Origin: a bacterium
Lineage (GTDB): Bacteria > Patescibacteriota > Minisyncoccia > Minisyncoccales > Minisyncoccaceae
DNA length: 64,000 nucleotides
Direction: 5' to 3'
Assembly (NCBI GenBank): GCA_041308625.1
Contig: JBFZBB010000005.1
Span: 8,798-72,797 of the forward strand
Part shown: one piece after another, positions 52,972-53,880 of the stretch
Numbering within the stretch: position 1 is the stretch's first letter
Layout of the letters: each line of letters starts with the position of its first letter
The notes under the pieces: model-generated
Database searches by the model: none
What the model saw: only the letters and a program-made list of their open reading frames with translations
What the model was told of the DNA's origin: nothing
Program-made: the position numbers and the translations under genes

Positions 52972-53880
52972 TTAATTATTTGCCAAATTATTTTTTAACT
53001 GAACCAAACTTCGATCATATTCTTTCGAGCTGATTCCATTATTTTTAAACAAATTATTTATTCCAAGAAAATAATTTTGATTAATTTCCGAAGAAGAAAG
53101 TACTTGATTATATATACGAACATCATCTATTGATCCAGGAAACCAATGACCAGCCGATAAAGAATCATCTATTCCAATAAAAGTACTAACGTTACTATTT
53201 ACCATTGTTCCCATAGCGGCTATTTGAGAACTATAAGAAACTTCTAGTCCATTAAGATATATATGTATTTTTCTATCTCCCGTATTATTATAAATCATGA
53301 CCACATTTTGCCAAATATTTAATGCAACAACATTAGTACTTTGACTTTCAGCATGAGTTACCGCCCAAACGAAACCTCTAATTGTATAATTATCTACAAT
53401 TCTAAAATAATAATCTGCCCCACGTCTAACGATATGCCCTGAAGTTATTATTCCTGTCCTTGGTTTTATCCAGCAAGAAAAAGAAAATGTTGTATTTTTA
53501 AGACTGTCGGCAGCATTCACTAAAACATAATCATTACTTCCATCAAAATTAAGACAAGTTCCAGAAACACAATTAGATTGACTCATCCAACCAGAACTAG
53601 TAGTATCTCCATATCCAGCAGTAGTGTTGGCAAAATTTGTAAGAGTTCCTGTGTTACCTAACCATGAATCAGAAGCTGATGTTCCAGATGCATTATCTAG
53701 TTTCCATTGAGAAACCCTTCCTAACAACAAAGAATTATCCATTGAATTAACAAATGCTTGAGATTTAGCAATATTAGCAGAATTAGTAATCGAACTCATT
53801 CCAACTAAAATAAAACTAGAAAGAATTCCGATTACAACAATCACAACAAGAATTTCTATTAAAGTAAAACTTTTGTTCAT
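52972..53880 (-). CDS. type IV pilin-like protein with LamG domain, located between parA and parB
   Basis: MNKSFTLIEILVVIVVIGILSSF and a C-terminal IDDVRIYNQVLSSSEINQNYF. ATGA overlap with the parA stop. Confidence 0.75.
   Translation of the reverse strand: MNKSFTLIEILVVIVVIGILSSFILVGMSSITNSANIAKSQAFVNSMDNSLLLGRVSQWKLDNASGTSASDSWLGNTGTLTNFANTTAGYGDTTSSGWMSQSNCVSGTCLNFDGSNDYVLVNAADSLKNTTFSFSCWIKPRTGIITSGHIVRRGADYYFRIVDNYTIRGFVWAVTHAESQSTNVVALNIWQNVVMIYNNTGDRKIHIYLNGLEVSYSSQIAAMGTMVNSNVSTFIGIDDSLSAGHWFPGSIDDVRIYNQVLSSSEINQNYFLGINNLFKNNGISSKEYDRSLVQLKNNLANN

Follow-up and report, generated by a model that had tools for sequence, protein, structure and literature searches.

The pilin gene that separates parA from parB in this genome is quite probably an old and dispensable insertion of one member of a large lectin-pilin family, followed at the same site by deletion of the gene in some species, retention of its tail and exchange of its core. 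As part of this explanation, the pilin would have no role in chromosome segregation, and no sign of a link between pilus and segregation was seen. Its product is of a known kind, and nothing about the protein is out of the ordinary. The informative parts of the locus are the evolutionary dynamics of the slot, with direct evidence of gain, deletion and core replacement at one well-defined place, and the promoter-like site left there for parB.

The window (the whole 64-kb stretch of DNA that was analysed) carries the locus on its minus strand. In what follows, G000 is the window's own genome, G001-G008 and further G numbers are relatives, and C numbers are contigs. The features of the locus are:

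54708-54792, plus strand: tRNA-Leu(CAA), directly upstream of parA and divergent from it
54646-54674, minus strand: parA promoter-like site, TTGTAA-17-TATAAT, 10/12 consensus matches
53877-54638, minus strand: parA, Soj-type partition ATPase, 253 aa (AAA_31, E=9e-64; CbiA)
53877-53880, minus strand: ATGA overlap of the parA stop and the pilin start (CAATGA), from the ORF coordinates
52972-53880, minus strand: pilin-LamG gene, modular type IV pilin, 302 aa (N_methyl + Laminin_G_3)
52951-52995, minus strand: 45-nt element, made up of the 3'-terminal 24 nt of the pilin CDS (stop codon included) and the 21-nt spacer
52959-52986, minus strand: parB promoter-like site within the 45-nt element, TTGGCA-16-TG-TATAAT, 11/12 matches, with TG
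52081-52950, minus strand: parB, Spo0J-type, 289 aa (ParB_N, 3.6e-34; HTH_ParB, 8e-29; TIGR00180, 4.6e-53)
52041-52075, minus strand: intrinsic terminator 3' of parB, an 11-bp perfect hairpin and then a U-tract

The genes run head to tail in the order parA, pilin, parB, and 21 nt lie between the pilin stop and the parB ATG. A previous sequence-only reading had reported a pilin-LamG gene between parA and parB with an ATGA overlap on one side and a 21-nt gap on the other, and all the ORFs are exactly as it claimed. The 69-nt gap between the tRNA gene and parA contains the parA promoter-like site. The nearest named matches to ParA are from Parcubacteria/Paceibacterota, in a contig scan with a generic Walker-box pattern that also returned distant phyla. 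The locus resembles the canonical chromosomal parA-parB (soj-spo0J) operon in its typical, co-oriented parA and parB genes with a terminator after them. However, it differs from that operon in having a foreign gene between parA and parB, in a parB that has its own promoter-like site and has moved off the ATGA junction that it occupies in G008 and G003, and in the position of the parS-like sites, which are on a contig other than the parAB contig. A search of the 64-kb window for parS, in the locus and around it, found none. Just two parS-like sites are present in the genome, at C10:9378 and C10:9537, 159 nt apart, with 1-2 mismatches to TGTTNCACGTGAAACA.

The product of the slot gene is a modular type IV pilin that carries a lectin-fold module of the LamG/ConA-like type, an architecture that is already known. 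Its parts are:

53719-53880, minus strand: N-terminal segment, residues 1-54 (N_methyl, TIGR02532; helix 7-54)
53110-53718, minus strand: jelly-roll (LamG/ConA-like) module, residues 55-257 (PF13385; AlphaFold2 strands 55-257)
52978-53094, minus strand: two C-terminal helices, residues 263-301 (263-279 and 285-301 in the AlphaFold2 model)

The pilin scores above the cut-offs of both prepilin profiles (PF07963 N_methyl, 23.6 bits against 21.2; TIGR02532, 21.1 bits against 16.3), and Laminin_G_3 (PF13385) covers residues 113-267 with E=1.2e-21. The AlphaFold2 model has a mean pLDDT of 88.3 and consists of the N-terminal helix (7-54), the jelly roll (55-257) and the C-terminal helices (263-301). 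In a profile search against the PDB, residue 5 aligns to mature residue 1 of the PilA, PilE, GspG and geopilin chains. Foldseek and the PDB profile search matched the module only to ConA-like/LamG lectin-type jelly rolls, at 14-17% identity and E ~1e-10, including domain 4 of a GH43 arabinanase, the lectin domains of sialidases, pentraxins and the lectin-like subdomain of clostridial neurotoxin binding fragments. Assignment to the TafC family fimbrial protein (NF052521) was rejected, as the score is 48.2 bits against a cut-off of 410 and only the lectin-fold part aligns. The protein ends in LKNNLANN and the stop codon, a tail typical of the family, whose consensus is RLxELKxNLxxx.

The leader is MNKS, followed by Phe at +1, Glu at +5 and a hydrophobic stretch. 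Position -1 is Ser, whereas the canonical criterion is Gly. This serine (KS/FTLIE) is present in all 35 LamG-pilin paralogs of the genome, for example at 53869-53880 of the window, and is also the consensus among 120 database homologs; the canonical Gly occurs in two short pilins that flank PilD. The prepilin peptidase Peptidase_A24 (PilD) is encoded at C25:6573-6905, the two short GFTLIE pilins at C25:5387-5854 and C25:7324-7779, and T2SSE ATPases at C25:10191-11375, C25:9341-10159 and C1:8284-9444, and PilD, PilB, PilT and both short pilins are found together on contig C25. The class III signal peptide and the N-terminal helix would place the slot protein in the pilus, assuming that PilD cleaves after Ser(-1), and the lectin-fold module is predicted most likely to bind a surface ligand of the host archaeon.

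N_methyl with PF13385 ranks among the most common architectures of modular pilins, and CPR bacteria provide many examples of it (PMC8179133). In Streptococcus sanguinis, PilC is a tip-located minor pilin with a lectin module that binds glycans (PMC9934059). [quoted passage not shown] Nevertheless, PilC is a 52.8 kDa protein with an additional Ig-like module, encoded by one gene inside the pil locus, whereas the slot protein has 302 aa, two C-terminal helices and Ser at -1, and is one of ~37 dispersed copies outside the pilus locus.

The genus of the window is Candidatus Microsyncoccus (Minisyncoccaceae, Paceibacterales, CPR), an obligate parasite of Methanospirillum (PMC10936435); that source describes pilins as highly expressed in Ca. 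Microsyncoccus PMX.50. The genome (697 kb, 30% GC, 99.6% complete) contains 37 pilin-LamG matches, 35 of them full-length ORFs of 279-313 aa and a few truncated, and the three paralogs counted in the sequence-only reading are just those within the window. Apart from the slot gene, these are:

7212-8075, minus strand: pilin-LamG paralog, 49 nt after the RsgA GTPase gene, with TATAAT 6 nt before its ATG
17674-18558, minus strand: pilin-LamG paralog, preceded by an unannotated membrane-like ORF of 305 aa and followed by a glycoside-hydrolase-like gene

The likely true start of the second of these is a GTG/Lys-Lys-Ser-Phe site, rather than the upstream ATG. The N-termini of the 35 full-length paralogs are almost identical (MNKSFTLIEILVVIVVIGILSSFILVGMSS), with an amino-acid identity of 0.81-0.88 over residues 1-30, and the C-terminal end is conserved too. 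On the other hand, the jelly roll is hypervariable in its centre (about residues 121-250), with a paralog identity of 0.11-0.25 in residues 141-250. Homologs in the databases come from Paceibacterota/Parcubacteria and carry annotations as LamG or prepilin-type proteins.

A parasite genome of 0.7 Mb thus devotes ~4.5% of its length to lectin-module pilins, and the copy number among relatives goes from 2 in G003 and G008, through 14-40 elsewhere in the genus, to at least 58 in two other genera. The LamG-pilin expansions are lineage-specific and repeated. The genomes with at least 58 LamG-pilin matches each, G015 and G019, belong to other genera of the family and measure 0.7-1.0 Mb, and several sister genera have 0-5. 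These dispersed lectin-pilins readily suggest themselves as candidate determinants of host specificity in the Minisyncoccaceae that live as parasites of methanogens. In cultivated CPR/Saccharibacteria, type IV pili serve host attachment and twitching (Xie 2022; Grossman 2025, both as cited in PMC13293708). The likeness lies in an ultrasmall episymbiont or parasite with conserved type IV pilus machinery and pilins implicated in host recognition. However, those studies deal with major pilins and a few pilus systems, whereas dozens of dispersed lectin-module pilins are found here. The literature searched holds no description of such a dispersed family, or of a copy between parA and parB.

Synteny was compared in 30 related parA-parB loci from 29 genomes, a check that the sequence-only reading had proposed. 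The pilin-LamG gene is present between parA and parB in only three of them, G000, G005 (contig C23) and G001, all of one genus and with the same CAATGA junction; conserved presence, as would go with membership in the ParABS segregation operon, was not found. Outside the genus, parA and parB either overlap or have a short intervening stretch in which no remnant of the tail can be recognised. Within it, parB itself is in ATGA overlap with parA in G008 and G003, with no trace of the pilin gene. G004, G006 and G002 also lack the gene, and their spacers retain the last 19-24 nt of the pilin CDS together with the 21-nt spacer (..AAAAATAATTTGGCAAATAATTAA TTTCTGATATAATACAAACAT). Since the retained codons, KNNLANN and the stop, match the family-wide tail consensus, this stretch is a remnant of the gene and not a pre-existing spacer. 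The closest relative is G004, whose ParA and ParB are 99% and 94% identical to those of the window; there the ATGA has changed to ATAA, and the spacer aligns weakly with the 5' end of the gene (score 35, AT-rich), a remnant that is suggestive only. A relative so similar that does without the gene suggests that fitness is equal and partitioning normal in its absence.

The ParB tree shows three groups within the genus, (G008, G003), (G005a, G001, G005b) and (G007, G006, G002, (G000, G004)), with the order among them not settled, and two of these clades include species that bear the gene. Two parA-parB contigs with 89-93% DNA identity are present in the G005 bin, one with the pilin gene (L014, on C23) and one without it and with a 1-nt spacer (L038, on C27), and the bin hence mixes two related lineages. 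The simplest history suggested by these loci would be one insertion within the genus followed by four or five deletions, and it is parsimonious only because the remnants prove at least two to three losses. An ancestor within the genus would have acquired one copy of the family between parA and parB, which took the ATGA junction held by parB in G008 and G003, and the gene would then have been deleted in several species. The insertion is not recent: the slot is common to two clades of the genus, and the timing proposed at first was wrong.

The gene that occupies the slot is not the same one in each species. In a tree of 83 family members from 7 genomes, the slot genes of G000, G005a and G001 belong to three different, well-supported subfamilies. 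The window's slot gene groups with copies at other loci of G000, G002, G006 and G007, those of G002 and G006 lying in stretches syntenic to contig C14 of G000, and the slot gene of G001 pairs with a gene located elsewhere in G007 (65% identity, support 100). The sister pair G005a and G001 shows where the change took place. Between them ParA is 96% identical, ParB 89% and the flanking DNA ~87%, but the slot pilins only 44% (30% in the core), whereas true orthologous pilins in these two species are as much as 87% and 78% identical. At the DNA level, the identity holds at 80-88% until ~130 nt into the pilin gene, is 28-57% from ~190 nt, recovers to 65% in the last 60-nt window (tail + spacer) and is back at 82-95% in parB. 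This breakpoint inside the gene argues that the core was replaced in a persistent slot, against repeated insertion of whole genes. The cores of the slot genes are not orthologous, and the sharp difference between sister species indicates that the core was swapped; the variable core would have been exchanged for cores of other family members by recombination within the conserved ends.

The 5' end of the slot gene had also been taken as a sign of recent insertion, owing to its DNA similarity to the paralog at 18430-18540. The similarity is real, as the slot gene and the paralog at 17674-18558 agree at 100 of their first 120 nt (83%), against 51-56% in the middle of the gene. Nevertheless, at positions with the same residue the share of identical codons shows no trend along the gene (0.42-0.73), so that this similarity is no evidence of recency, and recent gene conversion at the 5' end was rejected for the same reason. 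Judging from the codons, the 5' similarity is what ~85% amino-acid identity and codon bias produce. The N-terminal helix evolves in concert within species clades, whereas the lectin cores form trans-species lineages: among the 83 members, clade labels change 5 times on the N-terminal tree and 17 times on the core tree. Mature positions 12, 21, 23, 26 and 27 are nearly fixed as V/L/G/S/I in one clade and as I/I/S/G/V in the other, across dozens of paralogs. Old gene conversion or co-evolution with the pilus core are both possible causes.

Regarding transcription, the -10 box of parA ends 7 nt before its ATG, which suggests a leaderless parA mRNA, and for parB the corresponding distance is 8 nt. 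Across the genome, the exact sequence TATAAT is most frequent 6-8 nt ahead of start codons, and only 43 of 642 genes are preceded by an SD-like motif; leaderless mRNAs may be widespread in this organism, and perhaps the rule. The 45-nt element that contains the parB site is identical in G004 (45/45 nt) and nearly so in G005a (42/45, counted from the sequences by eye), although identity in the parB CDS of G005a is no more than 70%. G002 and G006 have the element intact, and G001 has a poor copy. We propose that this element is a parB promoter giving a leaderless mRNA, although the promoter scan overall stands at chance, with 15 sites found against 16.6 expected from shuffles. The pilin tail and spacer would then have been retained everywhere as a promoter, also where the rest of the gene was lost. 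This could be the way in which an insertion into an essential operon was tolerated, as the tail and spacer hold a promoter-like site for the displaced parB which has outlived the gene. The suggestion that pilin tails generally carry a promoter for the next gene was discarded, since 5 of 15 tails against a background of 41/187 is no clear enrichment.

For the pilin gene itself, neither a promoter-like site nor an SD was found, and read-through from the parA promoter with reinitiation at the ATGA is therefore plausible and probably the way in which it is expressed. A -10-like box at the distance that goes with a leaderless start is present in 19 of the 35 paralogs. Neither a terminator nor a stable fold was found between the pilin gene and parB (z +0.49), and no terminator-like structure anywhere within the parA-pilin-parB unit, while the terminator after parB folds with -11.9 kcal/mol (z -4.16) and none of 200 shuffles folds as well. 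The almost certain co-transcription claimed for the three genes agrees with their common orientation, the lack of a terminator between them and the one after parB. Independent promoters had been named beforehand as evidence that would speak against the claim, and at sequence level one is found for parB, conserved, in the pilin tail and spacer. We infer a combination of read-through from the parA promoter and an internal parB promoter.

It could be argued that the pilin has been wired into the segregation operon, as the sequence-only reading suggested, so that it is co-expressed with ParA and ParB and a surface adhesin is timed to segregation or division, for instance equipping the daughters of an episymbiont for attachment. 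The ATGA junction with parA conserved in three species, the absence of a terminator inside the three-gene unit and its presence after parB, and the lack in the slot pilin of the promoter-like site that 19/35 paralogs have would fit this idea. We nevertheless consider it very unlikely. The pilin gene is missing from 27 of the 30 related loci and was deleted, with the tail kept, in G004, G006 and G002; no specific protein is conserved at the site, since the core differs between sister species; and parB is seemingly uncoupled through its own promoter-like site. Moreover, the overlap is not the sign of a special tie, because an overlap of four nucleotides is the default here and more frequent than any other junction between same-strand neighbours (67 of 567 pairs; 174 pairs overlap in one way or another). 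Coupling is equally tight for sister copies elsewhere: paralogs overlap the stops of PEP synthase (-1), GltX (-8) and a class I aminoacyl-tRNA synthetase (-4), one lies 5 nt after GpsA and another upstream of a UMP-kinase-like gene (-4). Family members are placed singly or in tandem pairs within many unrelated operons, and with 35 copies and ~650 gene junctions the chance that any one named junction is occupied is ~5%. The parA-parB position of the pilin is not special. A pilin in a segregation operon is a by-product of a family colonising many operons of a minimal genome, and the locus gives no reason to postulate a new connection of pili with chromosome partitioning.

Another explanation is that the junction is a hotspot at which different pilin-LamG genes inserted independently two or three times. 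This would account for slot genes of three strongly supported, different subfamilies, and family members do come and go at other syntenic slots, such as that between the GpsA gene and its neighbour, occupied in G002 and G006 and empty in G000. However, both junctions are the same in the three species (CAATGA at the 5' side, and the NL(A/V)NN-stop tail and spacer at the 3' side), identity at the level of the flanks (80-88%) continues 130-190 nt into the gene in G005a and G001 before it collapses, and the tail element of G005a matches that of G000 at 42/45 nt, all of which makes repeated insertion unlikely. An assembly artefact, in which the assembler joined contigs through the conserved pilin 5' end and created a false parA-pilin-parB order, has a practically negligible probability. 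The family does break assemblies, with many paralogs of related MAGs at contig ends, and the G005 bin is a mixture; but the same arrangement was assembled independently in three genomes, matching remnants are found in three others, the 5' ends of the paralogs share only ~83% DNA identity, too divergent for k-mer collapse, and the contig is 80.8 kb long with the slot >18 kb from both ends. A single old insertion with later deletions and core exchange is the reading that we prefer.

The behaviour of the family raises a wider and more tentative idea, which we regard as possible though rather doubtful: the ~37 dispersed lectin-pilins could constitute a system of host-recognition diversification, with fixed slots behind housekeeping genes, cores that recombine through the 5' helix and the 3' tail, N-terminal helices kept uniform in each species lineage, and a parA-parB slot that gives constitutive, cell-cycle-linked expression. 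In the pilE/pilS system of Neisseria, a conserved 5' pilin segment is combined with variable C-terminal parts at one expression locus, and the pilS copies are silent, without a 5' coding end or promoter. The present family is similar in its conserved 5' segment and in its variable cores that move between loci. However, variation from silent cassettes of the pilE/pilS type was rejected here, since 35/35 copies have both a full-length coding sequence and a signal peptide, and a promoter-like site is present at many of them (19/35 with the -10-like box).

Some minor observations complete the picture of the family and the locus. A homolog that is 72% identical (P0002) was considered as a further case at a parA-parB site and set aside, being the first of three tandem pilin-LamG genes on a short contig of 2.7 kb. 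A second promoter-like match, TTGGCA-16-TATAAT with 11/12 positions, is located inside the pilin CDS at 53287-53314 of the window (minus strand). Finally, the paralog at C18:10196-11056, in tandem after C18:9289-10203, is broken by an in-frame TGA that leaves an 88-aa ORF. It is probably a pseudogene, and decay would thus occur in the family too.
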